DNA from: Gemmatimonadota bacterium
GTDB lineage: Bacteria > Gemmatimonadota > Gemmatimonadetes > Gemmatimonadales > GWC2-71-9
Direction of reading: 5' to 3'
Assembly: GCA_036679605.1 (NCBI GenBank)
Contig: JAZDCZ010000292.1
Span: 1-35,692, forward strand
Length of the DNA stretch: 35,692 nucleotides
Shown one piece after another: positions 178-35,692 of this stretch. The notes under the pieces were generated by a model. The model did not search any database. It was not told the origin of the DNA and saw nothing but the letters and a program-made list of their open reading frames with translations. The position numbers and the translations under genes are program-made. Each line of letters begins with the position of its first letter. Within the stretch, counting starts at the first letter, position 1.

Positions 178-1350
178 ATGGCAGCTTTTTCCACCAATCC
201 GTTGTTCCGCCGCGCCTCCAAGCGAGTGCAGAGGGAAGCTCGCGCGCAATGGAAAAAGACAACCGCGGCCAAGTCGGTGGCGCAAGTCCGGTCTGCGCTG
301 AGCGCTGGCAAGCAGGGCGCTGCCGGCGGGGCGATTGGCAAGGCCATCAACCAGTGGAGCAAAGCGGGCTGGACCGACCTGGTCCGATCCTCCCTCTCCT
401 CGTCCGACTTTGGAAGCATGGTTCGCGAGGTGGAGCGATACGCTCGCATGAGCGGTTCTACCGGTCGCTTGGTGAGCGAGTTTCTGGGGTCGATGGGCCC
501 GATTGGATCGCTCATTCGATCGGTGATTTCCAGTCGCGGCTCCGGCCGCAAAAGCGGTGTGGGCGGCGACATTCAGGCGGCGATCGACTTTCTCGACGCC
601 GTGGCGCCGGAGAGTCTCTCGGGCCGTGGACGGAAGCGTTCGACATTGCACAAGCCGGCCTCCAGGCGGACTGCCAGCGAAGTGGCCGCTCAGATCGACG
701 CGGCCAAGCAGTTTCTGGAGACGCAAGGATTTGAGGTCAAGCCACAAGAGGGAAAATTGGTGGGAGGTGAGCCTATCCCACCGGGCGCCGTGATGCCAGG
801 CGATCCCACGCCTGAGAGCCAGGCAACCTACCCGGGCGGCGTACCGAAAACGACCGGCAGGGGAACGCCTCGGAAGGTGGTCGACGTCGACATCCAGGGG
901 ACCGGGCGCAGATTTCCGGTCAACCATCCGATTGTCACCAAGCGCATGGTCCTGACGCCGCAATCCTCCAATGTCTTCAGCTACTCCTACGACGTCGACA
1001 CCTGGACGCTCTACGTCCGCTTCCAGTCGCACATGGTCGTGGGAGTCCCGGGCAGCCTCTACGGCTACTCAAGTGTTCCACCGGACGTGTTCCTGAAAAT
1101 GTACGCGGCGCCGTCGAAGGGAACTTTCATCTGGGACAACATTCGGATCCGCGGCACGGTCTCAGGCCATCGATACGATTATCAGCTCGTGGGCATCCGC
1201 AACAACTACGTCCCCCGCAAGGCGACGATGACCGCCGAAGGGGAGAGGTACGTGCAGCGAACTGTCAAGGTGAAGAGTGTGAGCACCGGCAAGATTCGAG
1301 TGCTCAGAAGCGGCGGCGATATGCAACCCGCGCCTAGCCACTACCGGTAA
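178..1350 (+). CDS. KTSC-domain-containing phage protein (390 aa)
   Basis: The C-terminal segment SSNVFSYSYDVDTWTLYVRFQ...GSLYGYSSVPPDVFLKMYAAPSKGTFIWDNIR matches the KTSC pattern (SS.I....YD.....L.V.F..G..Y.Y..VP......L..A.SKG.F....IR). The gene is in the same operon as the portal. Confidence 0.8.
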   Translation: MAAFSTNPLFRRASKRVQREARAQWKKTTAAKSVAQVRSALSAGKQGAAGGAIGKAINQWSKAGWTDLVRSSLSSSDFGSMVREVERYARMSGSTGRLVSEFLGSMGPIGSLIRSVISSRGSGRKSGVGGDIQAAIDFLDAVAPESLSGRGRKRSTLHKPASRRTASEVAAQIDAAKQFLETQGFEVKPQEGKLVGGEPIPPGAVMPGDPTPESQATYPGGVPKTTGRGTPRKVVDVDIQGTGRRFPVNHPIVTKRMVLTPQSSNVFSYSYDVDTWTLYVRFQSHMVVGVPGSLYGYSSVPPDVFLKMYAAPSKGTFIWDNIRIRGTVSGHRYDYQLVGIRNNYVPRKATMTAEGERYVQRTVKVKSVSTGKIRVLRSGGDMQPAPSHYR

Positions 1351-1362
1351 AGGAGTCTAATC

Positions 1363-3819
1363 ATGGACGCTACTCAAAATGGCCAGCACCGGATGGGCGA
1401 AGATCGCCATGACCTCAACACCGATCCGGCCTCCGGGATCCAGGGAATGCCGCCGAACCTGGGCGACTGGGCACTGCGTCACACCTTTACGTTTGTGGGC
1501 ATTGCCGGTTCCCAGGCCAAGGTCTATCGGCCCAGCGACGAGGCGATTCGCGACTCGTTCGACAATGCACAATTCATGCGCAACGACATCACCGTCATGG
1601 AGTGTGTCGAGATGCGCCAGCGTGCGGTGGCGCTGTTGGACTGGAGTATCGAACCGGAAGACGCCCAGGACGCGGAGCAGGTGGCAGTCGCCGATACGCT
1701 CACGAAGATTCTCAAAAAGATTCCGCGTTTCATGCAATATCGCGAAAACCTACTCCACGCCACCTGGTACGGAAAGTATGGCATCCAGCACAAATGGGGC
1801 TATCGCTGGGTGGCCGGCAAGATGCGTCCGATGCCTTTGAAGTGGCTGCCCGTGAGTGGCGACAAGATCGTCTATCGTTACGACGACGGCATGACCGATC
1901 ACCGTCCCGATCAGATCGGCATCCGCGTCGGCGCCGGCATCTACAGCGGCCCCGACCTGCGGAACTCCCTGCAAAACGAAATGAAATCGCAAGGCTTCCG
2001 GGGGAAGATCGAGTCCACCGATCATGGCTTGGCGTATTTCCTGGATACGTGGGAGAGGACCCTGCTGGCCGTTCACAAGTACCGCATTGAAGACGGTGAA
2101 TATCACGACCCGTCCCACGCTGGCCGCATCCACGGCGTAGGTGTCCGGTCGGTCCTCTACTGGACCTGGTATCAGAAGCAAGAGACGCTAGCCAATCTGA
2201 TGGAATTTCTCGAGCGCTCCGCCACGGGGACGGAACTGTGGTACTACCCGATGGGTAACAAGCAAGCGCACGATGCGATGGAGAAGGCAGCCCAGGAAAA
2301 GATCGGCAACGGTCGAAACATCGTATTGGTGCCGCGGCCGTTAGGCGAAGATGGGCAGCAGTACGGGGTCGAACACGTAGAGCCTGGCATGGCGGGCGCC
2401 GAGCAGATTAAGTCGATCATCACCGAATACTTCGGCCACGCGATCAAGCGTTACATCCTCGGTCAAACACTTACGACCGAGGCGTCGGCCACGGGACTCG
2501 GCAGCAGCTTGGCAGACATCCACCTCGACACGTTCATGCAAATTGTCCGTTACGATGCGATGCTTTTGGAAGAGACAATTACCACGGACCTGCTTGATCC
2601 GCTCAAGAAACTCGGCTTCCCGAAGCACGCCAACGTCGACTATCAGATCCGGATCCACACCCGCGAGCCAGACGCCGATCAGATCATCGAAGCGATGATG
2701 AAAGCCTACGACATGGGCCTGCGGCTCGACGCGCAGCAGCTGCGCGACTTGATCGGATCGCCAAAACCGGAAAAAGACGCCGAAGTGCTCGACAAAATGG
2801 AACAGATGAAAGCCGAGCAAGAGGCGGCCCAACCTCCGCCGGAGCCTGGCGGGATGCCACCAGGCAACATGATGGCCCCTGGGTCAAGCATTGGGGCAAT
2901 GAACGGCGACCAGCAAGCTGGCGTCAACGGCGACGCGCAGTCCGCGAAGAATTCCGCACCGGCCGAGGCGACTGAGCAGGCCGAGTACGTGGCCAATGGT
3001 AACCCCAGCGAGAACAGCGATCGGCAGCGGCTCGTCGGCAGCGACGACCAGCGGGTCGATCACTATCGTCGCTTCCGTTACGACGGTGAGACTGACCTTG
3101 ACGATCGGATCGACAAGGCGGCTAGCGAAACGGACACTAACCCCAGCGACAAGCAACGTGAAGCGGGCAACTACCGCAAGGGGCGATTCCATTGGAACGG
3201 TCTGGAGCTGGTGATCGAGACGCCGCGCGGAGTGAAACGCCGTCCAGAATGGCCCGCGATGCCGGCACACTACGGATACATTCGCCGGTTCGAGAGCGAA
3301 GCGGACGGAGACCACATTGACATTTTCATCGGTCCGAAGCCAGATAGCGAACTCGTGTTTGTCGTGGACCAGGTCACGCCTAGCGGGCGCTTCGACGAGC
3401 ACAAGGTGGTCCTCGGCTGTATCTCCGCCAAAGAGGCCGACACGCTTTATCGCGAGGCCTACACTTCCGGCTGGAAGGTGGGGAAGATCACGCCGATGAC
3501 GGTCAGTCAATTTCTGACGTGGCTGGAGAACGGCGACAGCAGCAAGCCGATCGAGAAACAAGTCGCGGCCTATGCGGCCGACTGGAATGAACCAGCCCAC
3601 AAGCGGGGCCAGGGCGGCCAGTTCGTTCCGGACCTGACCGGTTGGGACGTCGAGCGCAAGCAAGAGCCTTCCCTCCCCGGTCAGACAGGTCTTTTCTCGG
3701 ACGTGGATCCCGGCCTGGTGGGAGCAGCACAGCCCACCAAGAAAGCAGGTGCCAAACGCGACCCCAACCAGCGACAGATGTTTTTCCGCCGCCAGGTGCA
3801 AGAGGCACTGCGCGGCTGA
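1363..3819 (+). CDS. Portal protein (Mu gp29/DUF935-like) fused to a phage inorganic-pyrophosphatase-like (InPase) domain and a tagged C-terminal tail (818 aa)
   Basis: RBS AAGGAG. Portal-like motifs RQRAVALLDWSIEP, LLHATWYG, ILGQTLTT...GLGSSLADIH, LEETITTDLL. After a P/Q/G-rich linker: GNYRKG...IETPRG...MPAHYGYI...ADGDHIDIFIG...VFVVDQ...FDEHKVVLG, the InPase signature seen in phage polyvalent proteins. Confidence 0.85.
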   Translation: MDATQNGQHRMGEDRHDLNTDPASGIQGMPPNLGDWALRHTFTFVGIAGSQAKVYRPSDEAIRDSFDNAQFMRNDITVMECVEMRQRAVALLDWSIEPEDAQDAEQVAVADTLTKILKKIPRFMQYRENLLHATWYGKYGIQHKWGYRWVAGKMRPMPLKWLPVSGDKIVYRYDDGMTDHRPDQIGIRVGAGIYSGPDLRNSLQNEMKSQGFRGKIESTDHGLAYFLDTWERTLLAVHKYRIEDGEYHDPSHAGRIHGVGVRSVLYWTWYQKQETLANLMEFLERSATGTELWYYPMGNKQAHDAMEKAAQEKIGNGRNIVLVPRPLGEDGQQYGVEHVEPGMAGAEQIKSIITEYFGHAIKRYILGQTLTTEASATGLGSSLADIHLDTFMQIVRYDAMLLEETITTDLLDPLKKLGFPKHANVDYQIRIHTREPDADQIIEAMMKAYDMGLRLDAQQLRDLIGSPKPEKDAEVLDKMEQMKAEQEAAQPPPEPGGMPPGNMMAPGSSIGAMNGDQQAGVNGDAQSAKNSAPAEATEQAEYVANGNPSENSDRQRLVGSDDQRVDHYRRFRYDGETDLDDRIDKAASETDTNPSDKQREAGNYRKGRFHWNGLELVIETPRGVKRRPEWPAMPAHYGYIRRFESEADGDHIDIFIGPKPDSELVFVVDQVTPSGRFDEHKVVLGCISAKEADTLYREAYTSGWKVGKITPMTVSQFLTWLENGDSSKPIEKQVAAYAADWNEPAHKRGQGGQFVPDLTGWDVERKQEPSLPGQTGLFSDVDPGLVGAAQPTKKAGAKRDPNQRQMFFRRQVQEALRG

Positions 3820-3839
3820 CAGCGGTTTAGCAGGGAATA

Positions 3840-4055
3840 ATGGCAAACGTACTCGAAAAATCTATCCGTGATAGCAACTCGGCACGCAAGCTAACCGCCA
3901 TTCGCAAGCTGCAGCGCCTGCTGGTGGCCATGGAACAGCCTGGATTTACCGGGTCGATCGAGATATTGATCCACGGCGATCTCGGGAAAATCGGCAAAAT
4001 GCGAGCCCGGCTCGACGATTGGGACAATCCGAATCCGCCGCAAGCGAGAAAATAG
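3840..4055 (+). CDS. Small hypothetical protein (71 aa)
   Basis: ATG with an upstream AGGGA; fills the gap between the portal and the next promoter; contains a GFTGSIEILIH beta-hairpin-like segment. Confidence 0.6.
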   Translation: MANVLEKSIRDSNSARKLTAIRKLQRLLVAMEQPGFTGSIEILIHGDLGKIGKMRARLDDWDNPNPPQARK

Positions 4056-4056
4056 C

Positions 4057-4086
4057 TTGACAAATTGCCCGGCAATCGCCAAGAAT
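4057..4086 (+). promoter_or_regulatory. Candidate sigma70-type promoter for the head-tail block
   Basis: Perfect TTGACA at 4057-4062, 18-nt spacer, AAGAAT at 4081-4086; begins immediately after the preceding stop codon. Confidence 0.5.
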
Positions 4087-4136
4087 GCACACTGACGGCA
4101 AAGTGCCATCCACAATTCAATCTCCGGTACTTTACG

Positions 4137-4184
4137 AAAAAGGCCGGGTTCGCAACCTCAGCGGTTGCGAGCCCGGCCTTTTTT
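4137..4184 (+). terminator. Strong rho-independent terminator, potentially bidirectional
   Basis: AAAAAGGCCGGGTTCGCAACC-TCAGC-GGTTGCGAGCCCGGCCTTTTTT: about 21-bp stem with one G-U pair, an A5 run before and a T6 run after. Confidence 0.85.
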
Positions 4185-4217
4185 ATTTGCCCCGAGGCAC
4201 TTGAGCAAACCGATGCG

Positions 4218-6008
4218 ATGGACGCACTGCTTGATGCCCCCGACGTGCAAGCCTCCGACGCCGCGTTGGAGTTGCCGCAGGGCAACGTGCGAGAGCCGGG
4301 AGATTTTCCCGAGGAAGAGTTCCTGACGATCCCCAACGTGCCGGTGTTCGCCGAGCACAAAACCATGGCCAGCGATGATCGCGAGATCAACTTTGGATAC
4401 CACGAACTCAAACTGGTTGCCGATCGATGCAATCGTCGCATCGCCGAAAGTGGCGACTACGCCGCCGTCTGTATCGGGCACACGCCCAAGCCAGAGGCCA
4501 AGGCGTCGGGAGCAGCAGATCCTGACGTGGTTGGCTTTGCTGGGCCTTTTCGCATGGGCCGTATCGGCCAAGCTGGGACGCGACAACGTCATGCAATTCT
4601 CGCCGACTTCCACATCTTCCGAGATGACGTCACTCGATTCAAAAAGCATCCTCGCCGCAGCCCGGAGTTGTGGCTGGAGGACAGTTACGACGAAATGTTT
4701 CTCGACCCGATTGCGTTGCTCGGTGCCGAAGCGCCACGTCTCGACCTGGGGCTCTTGTATTCGGCAGTCTTGCACCGCAACGGGCGTCAGGTACTACGCG
4801 AAAAGTACACCGCCGTCGCGCCTGGCCCCAGCAACGTGTTTATTCCCGATGCCGGCGACCAAAGACGCTATTCACCCTCAGCAGACGAGGATACTCAAAT
4901 GGACGTAAACGACGATCTGGTCGCCAGAATCTGTGAAGCAATCGGGCAAACCGACGAAATGAAGTTCGTGCAAAAAATGATGGCCGAACAGTCGGGTGGC
5001 ATGGCGGGCGGCGAAGTCGCCATGGATGTACCCAGCCCTGCCATGGCATCGGTGGAACCTCCCGCACCTCCTGCCGCGTCACCTGCCGGACCGGACCCAA
5101 TGAATCAGGGACCTCCCGAGGGACCTCCCCCGGTCCCACCGGAAGACGAGGATCCCACGCAAAACATGCGTCACATGAAAACCTACGCGGCCATGGACGA
5201 AATGGAGGACGACGAATTGGAGCAATATATGTCCCGTCGTCGCAAAGGGCATCGCCGCATGGGCAGTCAGGGCAAGTACGAAGCGGGCAGCGGCAACGCG
5301 GCCGGCGAGTACCAGACCGCCAACCAGAGCGAGCTTGGCTCAGGAAAGCAGGAGCGATCCGAGACGAGCGGCGCCCCCACGCCTTATCAGGCCGAAGGGT
5401 CGGCGGACGGTAGCCGGGAAAATCCCAGCGGCACTGGCACGGCCAACGGCTCGATGGAGATTGCCACCGGTTCGGTTGACGAGGCGAATGGGAGCGGCAG
5501 TAACGCCGCCTCGACTTACTCTCGCAACGGCCATGGCAATTCGGTGCTCTACCAGCGTCTGCAGGTGGAACTGCGAACGCAGTCCGACCGCAGCGACAAG
5601 CTGGAGCAATCCCTAGTGATCGAGCGAAACAATCGGATCAATGCCGAACGCTACCAGCGTCTCCAGGGATTGCAGCTGGAGGGTTTCACGCTGGATCCGC
5701 AAGACGAAATGGAGCGTCTTTCCGCCGACAAGATGTCGACCGAACAATTCGACGAGACGGTGAAGTCGATCACGGAGCATTACCAGCGCATGCCGACGGT
5801 CGGTCTGCCTTACTCGGCGGAAGCCGTGATGAATGATCCAGGGCGCCCTGGCAGCCGCAACGAACAGGAGCGGTACAGCAGAGCCTGCGGGCAAAGAGCG
5901 GAAGAGATTTGCATGAGCATCATCAACCAGGGCGGTGATCAACCAAACTTTGTCACGATCCTGGACGAGGTGAAGGCCGGCAAGCACGGCGAAGTGTTGG
6001 TCGCTTAA
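4218..6008 (+). CDS. Prohead maturation protease with C-terminal scaffold (Mu gpI/gpZ-like)
   Basis: Lies between portal and capsid genes. IGHTP, LADF and RRSPEL motifs fit the His/Asp/Ser residues of Mu gpI-type head proteases. Low-complexity then coiled-coil C-terminal part. Start moved to the in-frame ATG at 4218 because the longer ORF from 4065 runs through the promoter and terminator. Confidence 0.75.
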   Translation: MDALLDAPDVQASDAALELPQGNVREPGDFPEEEFLTIPNVPVFAEHKTMASDDREINFGYHELKLVADRCNRRIAESGDYAAVCIGHTPKPEAKASGAADPDVVGFAGPFRMGRIGQAGTRQRHAILADFHIFRDDVTRFKKHPRRSPELWLEDSYDEMFLDPIALLGAEAPRLDLGLLYSAVLHRNGRQVLREKYTAVAPGPSNVFIPDAGDQRRYSPSADEDTQMDVNDDLVARICEAIGQTDEMKFVQKMMAEQSGGMAGGEVAMDVPSPAMASVEPPAPPAASPAGPDPMNQGPPEGPPPVPPEDEDPTQNMRHMKTYAAMDEMEDDELEQYMSRRRKGHRRMGSQGKYEAGSGNAAGEYQTANQSELGSGKQERSETSGAPTPYQAEGSADGSRENPSGTGTANGSMEIATGSVDEANGSGSNAASTYSRNGHGNSVLYQRLQVELRTQSDRSDKLEQSLVIERNNRINAERYQRLQGLQLEGFTLDPQDEMERLSADKMSTEQFDETVKSITEHYQRMPTVGLPYSAEAVMNDPGRPGSRNEQERYSRACGQRAEEICMSIINQGGDQPNFVTILDEVKAGKHGEVLVA

Positions 6009-6653: not shown

Positions 6654-7694
6654 ATGGCCGCCGTCTATCCGGGCCCCCAAAACACGTTCGTTCGCGCCCA
6701 CGAACATTCCAATAAGATGGTAATCGACTTCGCACGCAACATTAAAAAGTTTGCCGTGAACAAGTACACGAAAACCGTGCCGGTCAAAAAAGTGGCGGGC
6801 TACTACCTCGAAATGACCATCGAAGAGGCGGGTCGGATCATCAATGCCGATCTCCGCAACTTCGTCTGGTACGACGGCCAGGCGGCGCCCGAGGGCGTGG
6901 ACGGCCGCGAGTCGTTCGAGTTCAAGCCGTTCGAGTCGGTGCGTTATGCCTATCCTTTCCAGCTCGGCGATCTGACGATCGACCAGGCGAGTTGGAACAT
7001 TTTGGATCACCATTCCTCGATTCACAGCCGCCAGGCCATGACGGGTCGCACACAGCTGGCGGTCACGCAGCTAACCACCACGGGCAACTATGCCGCGAGT
7101 CACGTGATGGATGTCACCACGATCAGCGGGAACACGGGCAATTGGGCTCAATCGACAACCGCGCGGCAGGATATCAAGCGGTCGCTCACGACGGCCGGCG
7201 AGAAGATCCTGGACGATACGCTGGCGGCGATCGAGCTGGATGACCTGGTGTTGGTGATCAATTCGGCGATGGCCGCAGAGCTGACCCAAAGCCAGGAAAT
7301 CGTCGACTACATCAAGGGCTCGCCCGAGGCGCTCGCGCAAGTGAAAGGCGAGTTGTCCGGAACCAACACGATGCACGGTCTGCCGAACAAGCTGTACGGC
7401 TACCCACTTGTCGTCGAGGCGGCTCGCAAGGTCACCACGAAGAAAGGCGCTACGACCAACCGGTCGCAGGTGCTGGCCAAGGCCACGCCTTTCTTGTGTG
7501 CTCGGCCGGGAAGCATTGTCGGCGTTGCCGACGCCCCCAACTTCTCGACCTGCGTCTGCTTTGCCCAGGAAGAGCTAACGGTCGAGACCCTGAGAGACGC
7601 CAACAACAGACGGACTCAAGGGCGGGTTGTGGACAACATCGTTTACAAGATGGTTGCTCCCGTGAGTGGAGTTTTGTTCCAGGCCGCAGCGTAA
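6654..7694 (+). CDS. Major capsid protein (HK97 fold, 346 aa)
   Basis: Size and position after protease and cement genes. Features include GNW after a long helix, LVLVINSAMAAEL, and GLPNKLYGYPLVV, typical of HK97-fold capsid proteins. Confidence 0.85.
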   Translation: MAAVYPGPQNTFVRAHEHSNKMVIDFARNIKKFAVNKYTKTVPVKKVAGYYLEMTIEEAGRIINADLRNFVWYDGQAAPEGVDGRESFEFKPFESVRYAYPFQLGDLTIDQASWNILDHHSSIHSRQAMTGRTQLAVTQLTTTGNYAASHVMDVTTISGNTGNWAQSTTARQDIKRSLTTAGEKILDDTLAAIELDDLVLVINSAMAAELTQSQEIVDYIKGSPEALAQVKGELSGTNTMHGLPNKLYGYPLVVEAARKVTTKKGATTNRSQVLAKATPFLCARPGSIVGVADAPNFSTCVCFAQEELTVETLRDANNRRTQGRVVDNIVYKMVAPVSGVLFQAAA

Positions 7695-23634: not shown

Positions 23635-26600
23635 TCACACCTGCCCTTTCTGCAAAAAACCCTCCCACAACTGCTGGTCGTGGACCTCCAGCTGGGAGCC
23701 CTGGGCACTAGCTATCAGTTTACCAGGTTTCGAGGATGTGTCGAATAGCCGGAACTCGTCAAAGAGGCCTTCTGAGATCGCCTGCGGAATGATCTGGGAC
23801 ACTCCGGCGTGGATGGTTCGGATGACGTCGGCATCGACAAAGCGGCCCGTCTTAGCCGCCCTGGCGTTGGCCCTCTCGATCGCCACTTCCGTGGGCACGG
23901 TCGCGTAATTGGCGACGATCCGATGACCGCTCTCCCGCCACTTTCGAATCTTGCCTCGCAACTTCTCGATCGAGCTGTCGCCGGTCGTGTCGAGGACCAA
24001 GTCAAAACTGCTTTCAAGCCCGCGGCGAATGAGCTGCTTGCTGACGTCGGACGACTCTTCATGCACGAACGGCGCGGCCAGCAAATCTCGACCCTGGACC
24101 ATGGCACCGTACTCGGGTATCTCGCTCTTGATCTCGTCGGGGTCGACATGAACCGCGTTGTCCGGAAGCACCACCGCGCCTTCGCGAACCATGGTCGATT
24201 TTCCGCTGGCGCTTCCTCCGCCCAACATCCAGACGGTCGGCTCGTCACTCTTGGTGACGCCTTGCAAACGCTTAGCAATGATCGCCGAGTGCAGCCGTTG
24301 TCGCTCTGGCGTGTAGTGGTCTCCCACCTTGTACTGGCTCTGCGTGTCGCGACCAGCGGGATTGGCCGGCGGGTAGTGACGGTGGATTTCGCTAAGATCA
24401 GTCGACTGACTCTGCTGGCTGGTAGGATCCTGCGCATCCTTGCCGGGCGTGTTAGATCCGTTGCCAGAGCCGAATTTCCCATCGGCGTCTCGCGGGTGAA
24501 GCTCTTCACGCCAGGCGGCGTAGTCGATCTGTCCGCTCTCGTCCAAGTCGTAGCAGCCGCCCTCGAAACAAGGGGCGTCGATGTCCCGGTTGGCACCGTA
24601 ACGGTTTTCCTTGTCCCCCGAGGCGGGCGTGAAGACGTCGCCATTCTCGCTCCAGCTACCGCCGCGGGCTGGCGGCTGCGGAGGAGCAGTCCAGGCGTGA
24701 GGCTTGCCCGGCTCGACCTGCGTGGCCGTGGACGAGGCCGCCCGAGACTTTTCCAAGTTGCTCGTGGCGAAGCGACCGGCGTCGTCTCGTGCCTGCTGAT
24801 ACCCGTACCGCAGCAAGGTGTGCTGGATGCGAGCAAACATTTCTTTTTGCCGTTCGCCATAGTCCCTGGGCCCTGCCCCTTCGTCGATGCCCGCCTTGAA
24901 CGACTTGGGAAAACTCGCAGCGGTGGCCAGCAACTGATCGATCGGCAGGTCGACCTCCACCACGGAAAACATCGAATCGGGGTCGACTTCTCGCTGGGCT
25001 CGCCAGCGGTGGTGTCCGTCGAGAATGAAACCATCGTTCGAGGCCAGCATGGCAGAGCCGGGCCGCACGCCGTCGCGGCGCATTCCTTCAGCCATGGCAT
25101 CGACTTTTTCCTGGGAGAAGTCTTTTTGAGTCCCCTTCAAGTCGCCGACGCGGACCTCTTTCGTGCGATAGTCGATCCCCTTGCTACTGAGGAAATCGAA
25201 AAACTCTTTCTTGTCGGGGCCGGCGATTTGCGGCATGTCCTGGCGGGGGATGCCAAGCGTCTTGGGCCGACGCGGATCGTCCGGCTCTTCGACTACTTTT
25301 CCTTCCCACACTTTTCCCCCGGTCGACCAGGTGGTATAGCCGTGCTCTTGCAGCCATTGTGTCTGGGCAGGCGTGGCACCGTTTGGCAACTTGATTTGTG
25401 GTTGGTGGCTCGGATTACTGCCTGGCGTAGGAAAAGCACCGCCGACCACGGGATGCTGTGCCTTGTGGTGTCGGATGGAAAACTCGGAGTCTGTCCAAGA
25501 TTCCGGCGGACGAAACTGTCGCTCCAGTTGTTGCTCAATTGACGGCGATTCCGGCTCGGACGTAACAGGCTCGGGACCGTAACCGGCAGGCGTGACGTCG
25601 GTCGTCTTGAAACCGAACCCCGACATTCTCTCGTTGTATTCGTCGAGACTCTTTCGCAGGTGTGGCGGCAATCCTTGGCCGGCCTTCGCTGGTGGGACAT
25701 CGCTCGGCGTTGTCCCACCGCCCGAGCCAAATTTGCCATCGTCGGCGCGCTGGTGCTTCGATTCGTCAAAAGGGCGACGGTATCGGAGAGCCTCCAGACC
25801 GTGACGCAGCTGCATCGAGAACCGCAGCCGAGTCAGGGACTCCCGGAGTCCAAAGCGGGCCCGCTCTGGGTCAGGCCGGTCGCCTTCTGATGGTCCTGGA
25901 TTTCCTTGTAATGGCGCAGCATCTTCGTCTTCTGCGCCTCCGTTAGTTTGGGATAGAAGCGATCGGATGCGTCGCGTGGCGTCTCGGATGATTTCTTTTT
26001 CTCGCTTGGGCTCGTTGGCGAGCTGTCTGGTTTCTTCGTTGATGGCATCGCTGATTTCTCCTTTGTGCGTGGATTCAATGCGGAACAGCCCATGCAGCTG
26101 CTGGGCCGTCTGGGCTCGCTGGCGATTGGCTTCTGGATCGAGTACGTTGCCGGCCTGCTCCAAGGCTGCGGCCCGGCCGCGACGCCCTACCTCGGTAAAC
26201 GTGCGGGCTTCGCCGCCGAGGTCGCGCATGATCGCGGCGGTGATCGTGGCCCGTTCGACATCGAGGCTCCGCTCAACCTCTTCTGTACCGAACATATCGG
26301 TCTGAGTTTCGACGACGCTCTCGGTGAGCCCCTTCACCCGGGCCATTTCTTCGACGACGTCCTGGCGTAGTTTCTTGCCACTCTGCTCGGCGTTGTGGAT
26401 CTGGCGGAATAGCTGGTCCTGCTTGTCGTGCTCCTTCACGTTCCGGGCGATCGACAGAGCGAATTTCTCGTCGAGCTGGTCGTTTACCAAAGCAGCGAAG
26501 GCGCTGTCGGAGAGCTTGGCCAGCACGACGCCCTCGTCGGCCATCCGCCCCTTCATGGAAATCCCTTCCTCCCGGACCTTCTCGACCGACATATCCATTT

Positions 26601-27438
26601 CGCGGAAGAACTTCGCCGCGTCGATCGACGTCCCGTTGCCCTCGGCGATGTTAGCCAGCGCCCCCATGGCGCGAGCCTCTTTTTCGTCTGCGGCGTCGAT
26701 CAGGAACGTGGGGATGGGGCCCTGGTAACCGCTCCGCATGGCCAATTCAAATCTGTGATGCCCGTTGACTATGTAAGTCTGCCCGTCTTGGGGATCGTGC
26801 CACGCCAGTAACTGGCCGGCAAACTCAGGGCGAAACTTTTGTACTTCCTTCAAAGTTTCGGTCACCCCTTCGTTGCCGATGCCTTGCACCTTGTATTGGA
26901 AGCGATCTGGTGCGCTCGACAGCTCGTCGACGGTGAGCATCGTCACGCCCACCTTGCGACCGTCGGGTAGCGTCTGAATCGAAGGCGCGTCAATGCCGCC
27001 AATACGAGCCGGCTGCGCTATCGGCTCGGCGACTTTGGCGGGAATCTGATTCTCCTCCTCGTCGAAACGGTCATCAAGACTCTTGGATGGATTGAGGATC
27101 GCGGTTTCCGCAGGCGGTTTACTGGCTGTCTCGCCAGCGATCTGATCGGCCTTTTCCAAAGCCTGTAGCTCATCGAAAACTCCACCCTCTTCGGCAGCAA
27201 AGCCTCCGCCTTCCGTTTCCGAGAATTGGCCACCAGTGTCGCGGGGATGCTGCTCTTCTTGCCAGTCGAGTGCGTAATGCTGCCGGCGCCCGGACCGTTG
27301 CAGAGAAAACTGCTCGTTGATCGCGTCGACCAGCGCTTCACGGGTTTTGATCGCGACCTTTTGCGAGAAGACTTCGTCATAGCGCCGGCGATAACGCTGG
27401 ACTCGAAACGCTTTGCGGATGGCTAGCGTGGTGTTCAT
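23635..27438 (-). CDS. Polyvalent protein with two ParB/Srx-like domains and a C-terminal zeta-toxin-like P-loop kinase (1267 aa)
   Basis: Domain 1: PDRFQYK...LLAWHDPQDGQTYIVNGHHRFELA. Domain 2: RQDMPQI...LKGTQKDF...ASNDGFILDGHHRWRA. Kinase: MLGGGSASGKST, VDPDEIK, VHEESS, DLVLDTT, AIERANARAAKTGRFV, LFDTS. Confidence 0.85.
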   Translation of the reverse strand: MNTTLAIRKAFRVQRYRRRYDEVFSQKVAIKTREALVDAINEQFSLQRSGRRQHYALDWQEEQHPRDTGGQFSETEGGGFAAEEGGVFDELQALEKADQIAGETASKPPAETAILNPSKSLDDRFDEEENQIPAKVAEPIAQPARIGGIDAPSIQTLPDGRKVGVTMLTVDELSSAPDRFQYKVQGIGNEGVTETLKEVQKFRPEFAGQLLAWHDPQDGQTYIVNGHHRFELAMRSGYQGPIPTFLIDAADEKEARAMGALANIAEGNGTSIDAAKFFREMDMSVEKVREEGISMKGRMADEGVVLAKLSDSAFAALVNDQLDEKFALSIARNVKEHDKQDQLFRQIHNAEQSGKKLRQDVVEEMARVKGLTESVVETQTDMFGTEEVERSLDVERATITAAIMRDLGGEARTFTEVGRRGRAAALEQAGNVLDPEANRQRAQTAQQLHGLFRIESTHKGEISDAINEETRQLANEPKREKEIIRDATRRIRSLLSQTNGGAEDEDAAPLQGNPGPSEGDRPDPERARFGLRESLTRLRFSMQLRHGLEALRYRRPFDESKHQRADDGKFGSGGGTTPSDVPPAKAGQGLPPHLRKSLDEYNERMSGFGFKTTDVTPAGYGPEPVTSEPESPSIEQQLERQFRPPESWTDSEFSIRHHKAQHPVVGGAFPTPGSNPSHQPQIKLPNGATPAQTQWLQEHGYTTWSTGGKVWEGKVVEEPDDPRRPKTLGIPRQDMPQIAGPDKKEFFDFLSSKGIDYRTKEVRVGDLKGTQKDFSQEKVDAMAEGMRRDGVRPGSAMLASNDGFILDGHHRWRAQREVDPDSMFSVVEVDLPIDQLLATAASFPKSFKAGIDEGAGPRDYGERQKEMFARIQHTLLRYGYQQARDDAGRFATSNLEKSRAASSTATQVEPGKPHAWTAPPQPPARGGSWSENGDVFTPASGDKENRYGANRDIDAPCFEGGCYDLDESGQIDYAAWREELHPRDADGKFGSGNGSNTPGKDAQDPTSQQSQSTDLSEIHRHYPPANPAGRDTQSQYKVGDHYTPERQRLHSAIIAKRLQGVTKSDEPTVWMLGGGSASGKSTMVREGAVVLPDNAVHVDPDEIKSEIPEYGAMVQGRDLLAAPFVHEESSDVSKQLIRRGLESSFDLVLDTTGDSSIEKLRGKIRKWRESGHRIVANYATVPTEVAIERANARAAKTGRFVDADVIRTIHAGVSQIIPQAISEGLFDEFRLFDTSSKPGKLIASAQGSQLEVHDQQLWEGFLQKGQV

Positions 27439-31276: not shown

Positions 31277-31483
31277 ATGATTCGCGTCATTGAAGTCAAG
31301 CCGGATGGTCGAGCACTGATCGACACTGAAGGTCTCTATCGAATCCGACTTGAGCCAGGCGGCGAAATCGTCGACGAATTCTGCACCGCCAAGGAGGCGG
31401 AGTACATCATCCGTCTATGGGATGAACTGGAGCCTGACGCCGGGGCGACCGCCATTCCCTACTCGTCAGCCCAGCGCTCGTGA
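31277..31483 (+). CDS. Hypothetical protein (68 aa), convergent with and overlapping the integrase 3' end
   Basis: GAGGTG upstream of the ATG at 31277; acidic, protein-like sequence. Confidence 0.5.
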   Translation: MIRVIEVKPDGRALIDTEGLYRIRLEPGGEIVDEFCTAKEAEYIIRLWDELEPDAGATAIPYSSAQRS

Positions 31484-32709
31484 AGCTCCCGCTCGATCTG
31501 TTCCAGCTCGGACTTCTGTTTTTCGATGTAGATGCCAGTCGTTTGCAGGTGCTCATGGCCAGCCCAGCGCTGAGCGGCCTGTGCGCCAACATTCTCAGAG
31601 ATGTAGGTGGCGATCGCGTGCCGGAGTTGGTTGGGGCTGAATCGTTTTAGCGCCAGCCCAGCTTTCTCGGCTCGATCAAAACCCTTTCCCAAAGACCGCC
31701 GATAGGAATCAGTCGTGTAGTGTTCGCCCGGCTGTTTTTTCTTGGTCCGGCGACGCCGCAGGGCTTTGTCCCGTTGAACCCGTTTCGCTTCGCTCGGAAA
31801 GAGCGTCGTTTTTCGCGACGGCCGCTGGGACATCGACCATCTGTACGCCTCGGCCGGTTCGAAGAGATACTTCGAAGCGTTGCCATTCAGCAGCGGCGCG
31901 ATCAAGCCCTGAGCGATTCTCGGGATCGCTTTGACGAGCGACTTGTCGCGCCAGCGGTTCTTGTGGCTCTCCGGCGTGTACCACCAGACGGTCCCCTTCG
32001 TGTCAACGTCTCTGCCTCGCATGATGCAGACTTCTCCGGGACGCATGCCGCACAGATACTGGACTTGAACCATGACGCCGACGGTCGGCGGTAGAAATGG
32101 TAGCACTTTGTAGAGGCTCTCTGGACACGCTGGTGTAACCCGCTTCGTGTCACGGACACCGAGTTCGCCCCTTTGCAATCCGCGCACGCAGAGGAGCTTG
32201 TGGTAGTGCTCAGGGGCAATCAGTTCTTCGCTAGACGCCCAGCGGAAGAAACGCTTGATCCGTGAGATCGTGTGATTGATATGGGAGCGGGCGTAATTCT
32301 CGCCGGCCATCCACCGCAGGACGGTCTTCAAGCACTTGGGCCCAAACTCACATGCTAGCTCGTCGCCGTAGAGGTCCAGCAAGATCCGCAGGGCGTACCG
32401 CATCTCGTGATACTCTTGGGCGATGAATGCTTCGCCGTCCGCGTCGCGTCGCCGGTAGTGGAGCTTGGCGTATTCGCTGTAGACCACGACCAATTCCAAG
32501 ATCGACGGCGTACCGTGGATCGCCGGCGGTTCCTGACCGGCCCGATAGACCTCCAGCCGCTTGAGGAACTGGCGATAGCGTCGATGGCTCTCTTGGGAGC
32601 CGTACTTGCCGAGCGTCATCCGGTGATCGTTGGTGTCGATCGACTTGTGATAGACGAAGGCGTAGCCGCTGGACGTGCGCCGAAGTTTGGGAAGATGCGT
32701 TTGCGACAT
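31459..32709 (-). CDS. int: Tyrosine recombinase/phage integrase (416 aa), Planctomycete type
   Basis: RBS GGAGG before the ATG at 32709. Arm-binding-like N-terminus (SGYAFV...TLGKYGS.ES). Catalytic motifs GMRPGE, HK, PNQLRH, AGH and TTGIY. Confidence 0.93.
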   Translation of the reverse strand: MSQTHLPKLRRTSSGYAFVYHKSIDTNDHRMTLGKYGSQESHRRYRQFLKRLEVYRAGQEPPAIHGTPSILELVVVYSEYAKLHYRRRDADGEAFIAQEYHEMRYALRILLDLYGDELACEFGPKCLKTVLRWMAGENYARSHINHTISRIKRFFRWASSEELIAPEHYHKLLCVRGLQRGELGVRDTKRVTPACPESLYKVLPFLPPTVGVMVQVQYLCGMRPGEVCIMRGRDVDTKGTVWWYTPESHKNRWRDKSLVKAIPRIAQGLIAPLLNGNASKYLFEPAEAYRWSMSQRPSRKTTLFPSEAKRVQRDKALRRRRTKKKQPGEHYTTDSYRRSLGKGFDRAEKAGLALKRFSPNQLRHAIATYISENVGAQAAQRWAGHEHLQTTGIYIEKQKSELEQIERELHERWADE

Positions 32710-32730
32710 GGGGAACCTCCACAGTTTGGG

Positions 32731-33014
32731 CGGGGGTAAATCTTCACCCGCTGTACACCAGGTTCCTTGTCGCACCGCCGACGGTATCGACGTGATGCAA
32801 TTGCTGCTACCGACAAGAGTTAAGAACAGTGGAGCCGAGGGGGCTCGAACCCCTAACCTCCGGCTTGCAAAACGGGGCTGGGGCAACTCTTGGCGAGTAG
32901 CAACGCCGTGCATCGTAACGACTTAGGTGTCGCTAGCAACGCGCATGCTAGTGTACAAACAAAACGTCTTGATTCGTAGGGTTTAGTGGCTCTTACACCC
33001 GGCCGGGGGTAAAT
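32731..33014. repeat. Candidate integrase arm-type sites flanking the att core
   Basis: CGGGGGTAAAT occurs at 32731-32741 and 33004-33014, each with a nearby TACACC. TAGCAACGC is repeated at 32898 and 32934. Confidence 0.6.
32830..32871 (-). other. att core: 3' half of tRNA-Ala(TGC), probable attP
   Basis: Minus strand reads TTTGCAA-GCCGG-AGGTT-AGGGG-TTCGAGC-CCCCT-CGGCTCC-A: anticodon loop, 3' anticodon stem, T arm, acceptor 3' strand and discriminator A. No matching 5' half upstream. About 120 bp from the int start. Confidence 0.85.
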
Positions 33015-33049
33015 GGATTTTCAAACCTGCGCGGGCAAAATGGATTCAC

Positions 33050-34294
33050 TCAAGGGGGAGGCGTAAATCTCACGCCACCAGTTTCCGGATCGCTCCAGAT
33101 TCTGCCGCCAGGTTGCTCGTTGGGACGGTAATTGAGATTCGGGGGAATGTGCTTGCCTTGGGCAAGATCGGTAATGGCGCTTCTGAGATTCTTTTGCAGT
33201 TCGAGCGACTTTTTCTTGTAGCTGTTTTTCTCAAGAGTCACGGTGACTTGCGTGCAGCGATACTCATTGATTTGGAAAACACCATCGACAACCCAAGTGC
33301 TTCCTTCGTCTCTGACTTGCGGGTCCAAGTAACCGCTATGCCACGGGTCCAATTCGAGATCTGTGCCGGCCCAAGTGGTTGAGAATAATTCGGCTGCGTG
33401 TCTCTCGGCATGAACAATGACGGCTTCACTTGGGGCGCTAGTGACGGAGCTAATCCCGGGAATCGAAACGATTGCCAGGAAAGTGAAAACCAAAATACTG
33501 GTGCCGTTAATCAGCAGTCCAAGCTTCGTTAGGGTTTGTTTGCGATCTGGTTGGGTAAATCCGACCAGGGCAGCGATCAACCCGGCCAGATTAAGAGGGA
33601 CACAAACAAACCAAGCCAGCGCCAAGCTCTCCGCAGCATCCTCTAAGTCCATGGGAAGACTTTTAAGGCCATGTATTTGTGCCAACAAAGCAAAGAAGCC
33701 GATGGCCACCGTCAATGCTCCTAGGAAAAACGAAAATGCCCCCCATCCGGAAGGTTGTAGGGACGCTTTGGAGGGATCAGTCTGCAGAAGGTTTCTGATC
33801 GTAGAGATAAGCGTCTTGATCAGCGGCGGCATTGGAGGCGACACGCTCCTCAGCGGCGCTAATCCGAAGGCGAACCCAATCACTCCAAACAGCGAGCCAA
33901 ATAGCACCATGTGTCCGCGGGCGAGCATGTCCCGAGCTGGGCTGTATGGCTCACCCATCGTCGCTAACCCACCATAGAACGGGAAGTGATGTCCGGCGAA
34001 GTAGCCAAGTACCACGCCGACAGCGACTCCTGCCACAGTTGCAGAGGCGACCAATCCGTAGTTGGTGGATCGATTCACCTGTCGATCGCGAGTGGTCGAC
34101 GCGAGAATTGTCGATGGCGGATCCGGAGGAGGCGTGAATGGCGGGGGAATGGGCGGGGGCTGAGGCTCAGAAGGCGATTCGGCCCGTACCGTAAACTGCT
34201 CGCTGCACTTCCCACATTTGACCGTCTTCCCCAGGTAGTGTTCCGGGGCGTCTATCTTCGCTTTGCAGCTTGGGCATTCGACTCGGATTGACAT
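33050..34294 (-). CDS. Zinc-ribbon, Pro-rich, multi-pass membrane protein (414 aa)
   Basis: CPSC...GKTVKCGKC zinc ribbon, poly-Pro linker and about five hydrophobic segments; an architecture common in Planctomycetes. Confidence 0.8.
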   Translation of the reverse strand: MSIRVECPSCKAKIDAPEHYLGKTVKCGKCSEQFTVRAESPSEPQPPPIPPPFTPPPDPPSTILASTTRDRQVNRSTNYGLVASATVAGVAVGVVLGYFAGHHFPFYGGLATMGEPYSPARDMLARGHMVLFGSLFGVIGFAFGLAPLRSVSPPMPPLIKTLISTIRNLLQTDPSKASLQPSGWGAFSFFLGALTVAIGFFALLAQIHGLKSLPMDLEDAAESLALAWFVCVPLNLAGLIAALVGFTQPDRKQTLTKLGLLINGTSILVFTFLAIVSIPGISSVTSAPSEAVIVHAERHAAELFSTTWAGTDLELDPWHSGYLDPQVRDEGSTWVVDGVFQINEYRCTQVTVTLEKNSYKKKSLELQKNLRSAITDLAQGKHIPPNLNYRPNEQPGGRIWSDPETGGVRFTPPP

Positions 34295-34428
34295 TTGGAG
34301 TTCTATTCAAGGCCATATTGCGATTTCGAAACGAGCTTGTCGTCGACGTAAGTGGCGAAAATGGCGGCTGGGATGCCTGATGGCCATCAGGGGCGGCACC
34401 GGGCTGAATGGCGGCGGTGTTGGAGTCG

Positions 34429-35304
34429 TCATCGCAGCCTCTGGGGCCACCAAGCGGCCAGCAACAGTAGCACGATGGTCGAAGGTTCTGGGATTGAGCT
34501 GGATGATTGCGCGGGCGCCGTGCCGTAGGCGTTTTCCCAGGTTGTCAGGTCTGCCGAACTCCATGGGTCCGGCGACTCGCCGCGCTGCCACGCTAATAAG
34601 TCCATGCCGTCGATGGTGGCGTTCCCATCGAAGTCGCCCGTCGACGATACGAGTTGCAGATCGACCGAGAGGGGTCGATAGAGTTGGAAATCGCTGATGT
34701 GGAGGAACGGTTCGACACCGATCCAACCGGAGTTTTTGTCGGCGTGCCACCTCCAGCCGCCGGTAGCCGTCGCATTATCGGAAGGGTTCCAATCTAACTG
34801 ATTCGGCCAGTCGTCAAACTCTATCCTCCAATACTTATTCCAATAGCTGGCGTTGAATGGCAAGGTGCCAGAGAACTCTTGCGTGTAGCCGAGGCCAAAG
34901 TACGTGCCTGAAACTGACAGCGAACTGGGAGGGATCGACAAGGGCTCGACTGCCCAGAGGGTTGTCGTGGTCGGGTTGATGTCCAACGTCTGCGGAGGCA
35001 GAGAGGCCGAGACCTCGATGTCGAACGAGACAAAGGAGTTAATCTCCACGTGGCCCGACCACTCGACGGTGACGCTATGAAGCTCCAGTGATTGGCCGTC
35101 TGTGGAGACATCGACGGTCCAGGTTGGTTCGTAGAGCGCCTTATTGATCGTCCCCGAATACTCCCCGTCGATAGTCAGGGTGCCGTCGTATGGGACGCTG
35201 TAGCCCGGTCCTCCCGTTCCGCCGCCGCTGAACCGCAGCATTTCGGCCCGGGCTGAACTGGCTGCTAGTGCCAGCACAATCGCGATCGCTAGTCTGGTTT
35301 TCAT
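34429..35304 (-). CDS. Secreted PEP-CTERM sorting-domain protein with a dockerin-like/EF-hand segment (291 aa)
   Basis: Signal peptide MKTRLAIAIVLALAASSARA; GDFDGNATIDGMDLLAWQRG...DLTTWENAYG; C-terminal IPEPSTIVLLLLAAWWPQRLR. Confidence 0.88.
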   Translation of the reverse strand: MKTRLAIAIVLALAASSARAEMLRFSGGGTGGPGYSVPYDGTLTIDGEYSGTINKALYEPTWTVDVSTDGQSLELHSVTVEWSGHVEINSFVSFDIEVSASLPPQTLDINPTTTTLWAVEPLSIPPSSLSVSGTYFGLGYTQEFSGTLPFNASYWNKYWRIEFDDWPNQLDWNPSDNATATGGWRWHADKNSGWIGVEPFLHISDFQLYRPLSVDLQLVSSTGDFDGNATIDGMDLLAWQRGESPDPWSSADLTTWENAYGTAPAQSSSSIPEPSTIVLLLLAAWWPQRLR

Positions 35305-35367
35305 TGCTTGGTTCTCCAGGTCAAGTGAAGAGTGAAACGACCGCTGGAATCGCCATATCTCCCTTAC

Positions 35368-35586
35368 TCAAGGCTGGCCGAGGGCTCGCTTACACGAGTG
35401 AATAAATCGATCCACATCTCGTAGGCCGTTTGTCACCATAGGCCGGCCCATGGCCCGGATCTCATCCAAATCACGCCGCTTCATCAACTGCTTTAAGAGC
35501 GTTACCGCCCTGAGTCGAAGGCGAATCTCCTCCTCGACTTCACTAAGCGTACCCACAGTGACGGTTTTCTTTCCCTTTCCCGCCAT
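35368..35586 (-). CDS. Small basic hypothetical protein (72 aa)
   Basis: Helical, protein-like ORF MAGKGKK...ALGQP upstream of the PEP-CTERM gene. Confidence 0.55.
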   Translation of the reverse strand: MAGKGKKTVTVGTLSEVEEEIRLRLRAVTLLKQLMKRRDLDEIRAMGRPMVTNGLRDVDRFIHSCKRALGQP

Positions 35587-35692
35587 GAATCGCACCCAAA
35601 AGAAGAAAACTCAAAAGATTTTGAAGATTATCAAATCATAACGCTTCAGTTTTTAGACGCAACTCCTTGCGTGGAAACAACTTAAGCATGGT

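Follow-up and report, generated by a model that had tools for sequence, protein, structure and literature searches.

Portal proteins fused to a domain resembling inorganic pyrophosphatases (PPases), the InPase domain, were described by Iyer et al. 2017 (PMC5512222); in the passages of that paper dealing with them, BcepF1.124 is given as an example, injection of the enzyme is suggested, both a nucleotide and the clearance of pyrophosphate (PPi) are offered as its task, and the absence of a β-hairpin between strands 1 and 2 is taken as the mark of the family. Portals with the same C-terminal domain (PF18823) are found in Pbunavirus phages. According to the relevant sections of the structural papers, residues 529-765 of the Pa193 portal are without density (PMC11456595) and the E217 portal model ends at residue 528 (PMC10329688); the word 'pyrophosphatase' is absent from the main text of both. 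Portal fusions of 2H, Nudix, PBECR and ADP-ribosyltransferase (ART) domains are likewise on record (in the portal-related sections of PMC9503650), and the last 124 residues of the Mu portal, gp29, are missing from the virion structure, a loss which the portal section of that paper attributes to protease I (PMC11915804). Here we analyse a portal-InPase fusion gene located at positions 1363-3819 of contig JAZDCZ010000292.1 (assembly GCA_036679605.1), the whole stretch of which, 35,692 nt long, is referred to as the window. The fusion architecture and the hypotheses on its substrate were published in 2017; what is new is a Mu-type, polymorphic and probably protease-released version of it.

The gene is a single open reading frame (ORF) on the + strand, as are the other head genes described below, and specifies a protein of 818 aa (92 kDa). 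An initial annotation, made from the sequence alone, had read it as a portal joined to an InPase-like domain, and profile searches bore this out: the ORF matched PF06074 (Portal_Mu, DUF935) with 145.5 bits (cut-off 23.9) and PF18823 with 130.1 bits (cut-off 26.8; residues 597-722, model positions 2-135 of 135, E 6.5e-38). The Mu-type portal core (residues about 30-480; 1450-2802) also matched the sequences of the solved portals 8RKA (E 4e-13) and 9KHX. It is followed by a fast-evolving linker rich in Q, P, G and M (residues 481-540; 2803-2982), which is 46-49% identical to that of its two closest relatives, against 80-82% in the core. Next comes a conserved linker segment (2980-3030) containing Tyr542 and a P-S-E-N-S-x-R motif, a candidate first cut site; over residues 536-573 the identity is 71-79% and the ratio of non-synonymous to synonymous change (pN/pS) 0.11-0.23. 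The InPase domain proper (residues 574-735; 3082-3567) contains HYGYI (residue 636, nt 3268), DGDHIDIF (648, 3304), DQ (669, 3367) and FDEHK (677, 3391), all located where the annotation had placed them. Tyrosines flank it at residues 568, 573 and 737: Tyr568 and Tyr573 (3064-3081) mark the N-terminal border of the cassette as off-consensus candidate cut sites, and Tyr737 (3571-3573), also a candidate cut site, marks its C-terminal border. A peptide tag, [WF]-x-E-x-x-H-P/K-R-x-x-x-G-x-F (3583-3624), heads the last piece of 8.9 kDa. One InPase copy is present in the genome. The portal belongs to the same family as Mu gp29, and genes for a gpI-like protease-scaffold, a cement-like protein, the capsid and a Mu gp36-like adaptor follow downstream.

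That the ORF might be an assembly chimera, or two genes joined by a frameshift, is favoured by related loci in which the InPase lies on a separate downstream gene, and by the contig's bin, which is probably not that of its host. However, one identical Logan contig from a separate assembly (run X5, possibly the window's source DNA) covers positions 1200-4300 with 0 differences, and the same fusion is encoded by another two phage contigs, each about 61 kb long (L020 and L021; portal identity 82% and 80%, domain identity 80% and 76%, respectively). In addition, 64 of the 161 InPase-bearing proteins examined also match the portal profile of the clade. Runs X1-X3 contribute small shares only, and the missing cover over the domain in X2 and X3 was not counted as evidence. 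Because a spanning contig without differences and independent contigs carry it, the fusion is confirmed as real; the artefact against which the annotation had guarded was refuted by these contigs and keeps next to no probability.

By structure prediction the domain has a family-I-PPase-like fold. An AlphaFold2 model built from 73 sequences reached a predicted local distance difference test score (pLDDT) of 95; a single-sequence fold was poor (pLDDT 54.6) and was not used. When the model was compared with 48,161 solved chains, the top eight matches were family I PPases, with middling Z scores of 5.1-7.5 (3.5 for the next row) and root mean square deviations of 3.0-4.4 Å over 105-124 residues. 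Foldseek also ranked PPases first, the best at E 0.002 (prob 0.95) and none at E 0.001 or better. Comparison by hhalign with family I PPases gave 92.8% over 43 columns, and in the profile alignment the Tyr-Gly and D-x-D-x-x-D elements match Y55, D65, D67 and D70 of the E. coli enzyme (Ppa). Across 161 homologues E619, R626, Y637, D648, D653, D678, E679, K681 and Y696 are invariant, while D650 is conserved in 99% and D669 in 95%. Conserved acidic candidates for metal ligands, of which four or more were sought, are D648, D650, D653, D678, E679, E619 and D669. The fold, on which the initial annotation had staked its reading, is thus PPase-like, and the acidic active-site residues are intact.

The domain differs from the family I soluble PPases (PF00719) in that it lacks a 14-residue hairpin segment (a 14-column gap against 19 cellular PPases), its C-terminal Tyr-Lys segment does not align with the same 19 enzymes, and the Pfam search of the ORF gave no match to PF00719 at E 0.01. 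In the E. coli PPase, the hairpin and the C-terminal segment carry the substrate-binding residues E31, R43 and K142. Absence of the hairpin places the window InPase within the family as delimited by Iyer et al. 2017. On these alignments the domain is a putative PPase-type metal hydrolase outside PF00719, predicted to act as a Mg-dependent phosphoanhydride hydrolase in which the PPase metal site is intact and the substrate hairpin absent. It might instead be a decayed or neutral passenger with no function, as could be argued from its being dispensable in the clade (105 of the 120 portals surveyed below are without InPase, and a close relative lacks it in frame). Yet its pN/pS was 0.17-0.19 in both close-relative comparisons, equal to that of the portal core, with synonymous sites near-saturated; its catalytic-type residues are 95-100% conserved in the 161 homologues; and among 50,697 cultured-phage records the domain is matched in 458, of which 293 bear the name Pseudomonas. 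A passenger is therefore very improbable, and purifying selection acts on the domain as it does on the core of the portal.

The only PDB sequence match of the InPase domain was the Pa193 portal gp19 (9B41; residues 636-762, E 3e-22). In Pa193, E217 (8FVH) and BcepF1, as in the window, PF18823 stands at the C-terminus of the portal behind a flexible linker. The portals themselves differ, however, being PF06074 here and PF06381 in the Pbunavirus phage E79 (333.7 bits), on which the clade profile scores -3.3. Since the Pbunavirus portal belongs to PF06381 and the clade profile fails to align with it, the Mu-type and Pbunavirus fusions probably arose independently. Further differences are that Pbunavirus has Asn at the position of D669, that the Tyr-type borders and the tag were not seen in the E79 portal sequence, and that the slot holding the domain, compared with Pbunavirus and BcepF1, is polymorphic in the window's clade. 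Polyvalent, MuF and portal-fused effectors (PMC5512222, PMC9503650, PMC5576092) share with this locus a head carrier with variable C-terminal enzymes, but in the relevant sections of those papers embedded zincin metallopeptidases or assemblin-like peptidases are proposed as the releasing enzymes, and neither a Tyr cut rule, nor the tag, nor a planctomycete clade figures there ('planctomyc' gave 0 matches in PMC5512222). As far as the portal section of the Mu paper goes, no enzyme is reported in the tail removed from gp29, and the Tyr specificity proposed here derives from conservation. In a whole-word literature search for InPase or PF18823 together with phage, only PMC5512222 came up and no assay was found; a search of the literature from 2022 on for a virion pyrophosphatase with anti-defence activity found no paper.

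A further claim of the annotation was that the portal serves as a cargo carrier. The survey covered the best 120 of 404 portal relatives, with length limited to 449-1432 aa; cargo names come from 40 of the 120, which were scanned against Pfam. In the full set of 120, 72 portals have tails of at least 200 aa and 15 carry InPase (14 whole, one partial); SENSER-type motifs were found in 24 of the 120 tails. In agreement with the claim, relatives swap InPase for other domains, namely ART-PolyVal, Nudix, topoisomerase IB, PBECR3, Fic, ART, 2H, LPD3, SAM lyase, GNAT and methyltransferase. Conflict-type enzymes in this pool are ART-PolyVal, Nudix, 2H, Fic, PBECR3, topoisomerase IB, SAM lyase and GNAT. 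The SAM-lyase-like domains fused to portals in P0110 and P0117 scored around the Pfam cut-off, and no MuF domain was detected on the carriers scanned. On a FastTree phylogeny of the 120 cores, the distribution of InPase needs at least 10 changes; the shuffled mean was 14.4, with 0 of 500 shuffles that low. Given these counts, InPase is clustered on the portal tree as reconstructed, yet often gained or lost.

Single exchanges can be followed in close pairs. The cores of P0033 and P0034 are 98% identical and their cargo is swapped, both ends of the swap falling at Tyr motifs, while the window (InPase) and P0004 (ART) rejoin exactly at Tyr737. A contig of run X1, from a relative and not the same strain, joins position 3053 to 3574 via 31 different letters, a net loss of 489 nt (163 codons) that is in frame and removes residues about 564-737; by eye, the join letters contain no stop, and one Tyr remains before the tag. 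This contig, one of one run, is a natural cassette-less allele, whose ends were used in placing the left and right borders of the cassette. Where its portal gene ends (window 3806-3830), the same relative contains a further 974 letters, which may encode different cargo or belong to a separate gene. Related loci also have InPase on genes distinct from the adjacent portal gene, in one case together with a sigma factor; at L126:11030-15775, a protein combining sigma70 and InPase adjoins a portal. Beyond the lengths surveyed, the clade includes portal polyproteins that reach 2,200-2,700 residues and combine InPase with other domains (L156:4494-12722, L014:4569-11369 and P0153). To judge from these exchanges, the portal tail is an exchangeable, polymorphic cargo slot.

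A candidate for the enzyme that would cut such tails is encoded just downstream, at 4065-6008, as a Mu-gpI-like prohead protease fused to a scaffold (the start given is probably too far upstream; His at 4479-4481, Ser at 4659-4661). When aligned with 18 Mu-like proteases, a set seeded on PF10123 members, its N-terminal domain gave an hhalign value of 97.4% and a pairwise E of 1.4e-11 over 115 columns, with His, Ser and an ALLGA-type strand in register. The protease atlas lead was 0.94, and His and Ser are invariant in seven aligned sequences. PF10123 was absent from 10 clade protease homologues at E 1, and no NCBIfam match was obtained for the protease. By profile homology the ORF is probably a Mu-gpI-like prohead protease; that it processes portal and scaffold is deduced from motif conservation. 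Directly after the protease domain, 48 of 51 non-redundant homologues have Y[ASTV], mostly as EKYA or ERYA; in the window this junction reads E-K-Y-T-A (4800-4845) and is a probable self-processing site. The cut is suggested to fall right after the Tyr because the peptide following it (4809-4845) resembles, across the clade, the N-terminus (6654-6700) of the major capsid protein (6654-7694; a weak match to phrog_1005). Some portal linkers (P0006) repeat this junction/capsid peptide, which might mimic the N-arm of the capsid protein or serve in targeting. In the scaffolds, [KRQHE]Y[ASG] sites number 137, compared with 33 in shuffles, and [KR]Y[AST] is spread over 22 alignment columns.

The annotation had described the InPase as bounded by Tyr sites, and this arrangement exceeds chance. 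The portal core was the sole criterion by which the 14 whole portal-borne InPases were chosen; a Tyr marks the C-terminal border in 13 of them (null 0.26, p 3e-7) and lies near the N-terminal border in 13 (null 0.53, p 0.002). The sequences are related, so that these p values overstate the case, and kinship inflates all the motif tests. A set of 150 matches obtained with a query that contained the downstream Tyr was left out of the Tyr counts as biased. The tag ([WF]xExxHPRxxxGxF) is present in 50 copies in 41 of the 120 tails, half of which (25 of 50) have a Tyr 2-6 residues upstream (null 0.135). A relaxed tag pattern gave seven matches in the whole assembly, three of them on the window contig, and a few InPase proteins outside the clade have similar tags after other boundary motifs.

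In the mechanism proposed here, the portal subunit would be made as a 92-kDa precursor with its C-terminal tail inside the prohead, as the Mu, E217 and Pa193 portals suggest. During head maturation the Mu-gpI-like protease would cut after the Tyr of the consensus E-[KR]-Y-[AST], probably at its own protease-scaffold junction first and in the portal tail next. The products would be the portal, shortened to about 61-64 kDa, an InPase of 19 kDa and a tagged piece of about 9 kDa; the freed InPase, in up to 12 copies, would stay in the head and probably enter the cell with the DNA. That the tail is built into the prohead and cut at Tyr sites, and that the enzyme travels with the DNA, is in our judgement evenly balanced between right and wrong, on sequence and on analogy with Mu. 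Several observations weigh against it. The border sites of the window are off consensus (H-Y-R, R-Y-D, A-Y-A), P0003 lacks a downstream Tyr at its end, many of the breakpoints that separate sister tails fall at the tag or at other non-Tyr positions, and P0031 and P0039 break within the first helices of the InPase domain. The tag comes after the InPase here, leaving the InPase piece itself tagless. The protease ORF has no direct Pfam match (E 0.01) or PDB sequence match, and the absent density for 529-765 in Pa193 and E217 fits cleavage and flexibility equally. Finally, the 2.7-fold enrichment of the strict motif in tails has counterparts among homologues of the capsid (2.7), adaptor (3.9), KTSC (2.0) and portal core (1.6). 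The control enrichments sit in 4-8 conserved columns (capsid and adaptor, four each), as against 22 in scaffolds; because conserved columns inflate the controls, this [KR]Y[AST] shuffle test is non-specific and the control hits are no disproof. In the window alone, a simple Tyr pattern did not separate head proteins from others. The linker-like stretches of tails are no richer in Tyr (0.024) than cores (0.026), whereas scaffolds are (0.040).

The annotation had pictured about 12 enzyme copies fixed at the exit channel. The number stands as an upper expectation from a dodecameric portal; the fixed position is probably wrong, since the borders carry the Tyr motif of the adjacent protease and the Mu portal provides a precedent, which makes released, loose cargo likelier than a channel-fixed enzyme. 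An enzyme that stays attached, with 12 tethered copies under the portal crown acting in the head or at the channel mouth, would suit the off-consensus border sites of the window. It is unlikely, however, given that the border Tyr motifs are shared with the protease's own junction, that InPase lies on separate genes next to the portal in related loci, so that tethering is unneeded, and that we know of no PPi-producing step inside a packaged head, the terminase yielding ADP and Pi. In a Pbunavirus virion, an 84.5-kDa portal homologue was covered to 59% by peptides (virion proteome section of PMC6521218), slightly above the share of the resolved core (57%), from which some non-core peptides can be inferred to be present in particles; attached and free forms are not separated by this figure, which fits a tethered and a released enzyme alike. 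No gp19 peptide map was found in two Pa193 supplements.

Action late in the producing cell is of comparably low probability: the enzyme would counter a nucleotide-signalling defence triggered by head proteins, or clear PPi in late synthesis, and then be cut off and lost. Being fused, the enzyme is certain to be expressed together with a known immune trigger; fragments of the scaffold that are cut at this motif normally do not stay in the head (as established for HK97-fold phages); and in its discussion of portal-linked ARTs the paper of Iyer et al. 2022 (PMC9503650) raises this alternative. Co-expression, on the other hand, requires a neighbouring gene only and no fusion; linkers of the Tyr-plus-tag kind are also present in a polyprotein that has no portal and is not encoded in the head operon (described below); and the cargo pool, with its sigma factor, topoisomerase, methyltransferase and ART, reads as early-acting.

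The substrate of the InPase is estimated, with a slight lean that way, to be a nucleotide-linked pyrophosphate, such as an alarmone or a defence signal; free PPi is a somewhat weaker candidate, and a non-catalytic role seems improbable. A scarce nucleotide is favoured over bulk PPi because the hairpin is missing, the domain keeps company with conflict enzymes and the copy number would be low. Pseudomonas aeruginosa, the host by name of 293 of the 458 cultured-phage matches, has a family I PPase of its own (4XEL), so 12 extra copies would add little to bulk PPi turnover. On the other side, three of five planctomycete MAGs (metagenome-assembled genomes, incomplete) showed no family I PPase, which keeps PPi clearance possible.

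Taken together, a large clade of mostly planctomycete-associated Mu-like phages might possess a programmable portal cargo bay, refilled by recombination in the linkers, with Tyr-specific release of the gpI type, a widespread tag that is exposed by the cut and retains or ejects pieces with the DNA, and an injected, hairpin-less anti-defence InPase destroying a nucleotide alarmone or defence signal; as a whole this is a tentative and rather unlikely proposal. The present analysis adds a testable model for the exchange and release of cargo borne on portals. It also gives a candidate after-Tyr specificity for a Mu-gpI-type protease and makes the portal tails of the clade a catalogue slot for new anti-defence enzymes. 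If the whole proposal is true, a conserved putative anti-defence enzyme would be carried by hundreds of PB1-like therapy phages; as the domain is mostly found in Pseudomonas phages, the substrate question is testable in a tractable phage.

The host was inferred from relatives only. GTDB genomes yielded 33 close loci (at least 43% identical), 27 of which are titled Planctomycetota. The PSD1 domain is absent from the window's own bin, compared with 10-46 in each of three planctomycete MAGs, for which reason the contig may be mis-binned. The assembly measures 6.7 Mb, against about 2.6-4.6 Mb for the listed genomes of its family.

Directly upstream of the portal gene lies a KTSC-domain gene (178-1350, +) with 46 homologues, in 23 of which an R-Y-A site is conserved; its product may be a processed head protein. 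To go by comparison with L021, the gene for the terminase large subunit is located off the contig, before its start. A search of the window for tRNAs found none. At its far end (31459-35692) are encoded a tyrosine integrase, a zinc-finger membrane protein (TIGR02098) and then a protein whose tail we take to be PEP-CTERM-like (it has no family match); this may be host DNA at the end of a prophage. On the strand opposite to the head genes, outside the head operon, a portal-less polyprotein of 1267 aa (23635-27438, −) contains a zeta-toxin-like kinase and two ParB-like domains, with linkers between them of the same Tyr-plus-tag kind, and probably represents a second cargo of the head. The first of its ParB-like parts matches an extension found on portals of another family (phrog_21, E 4e-69).

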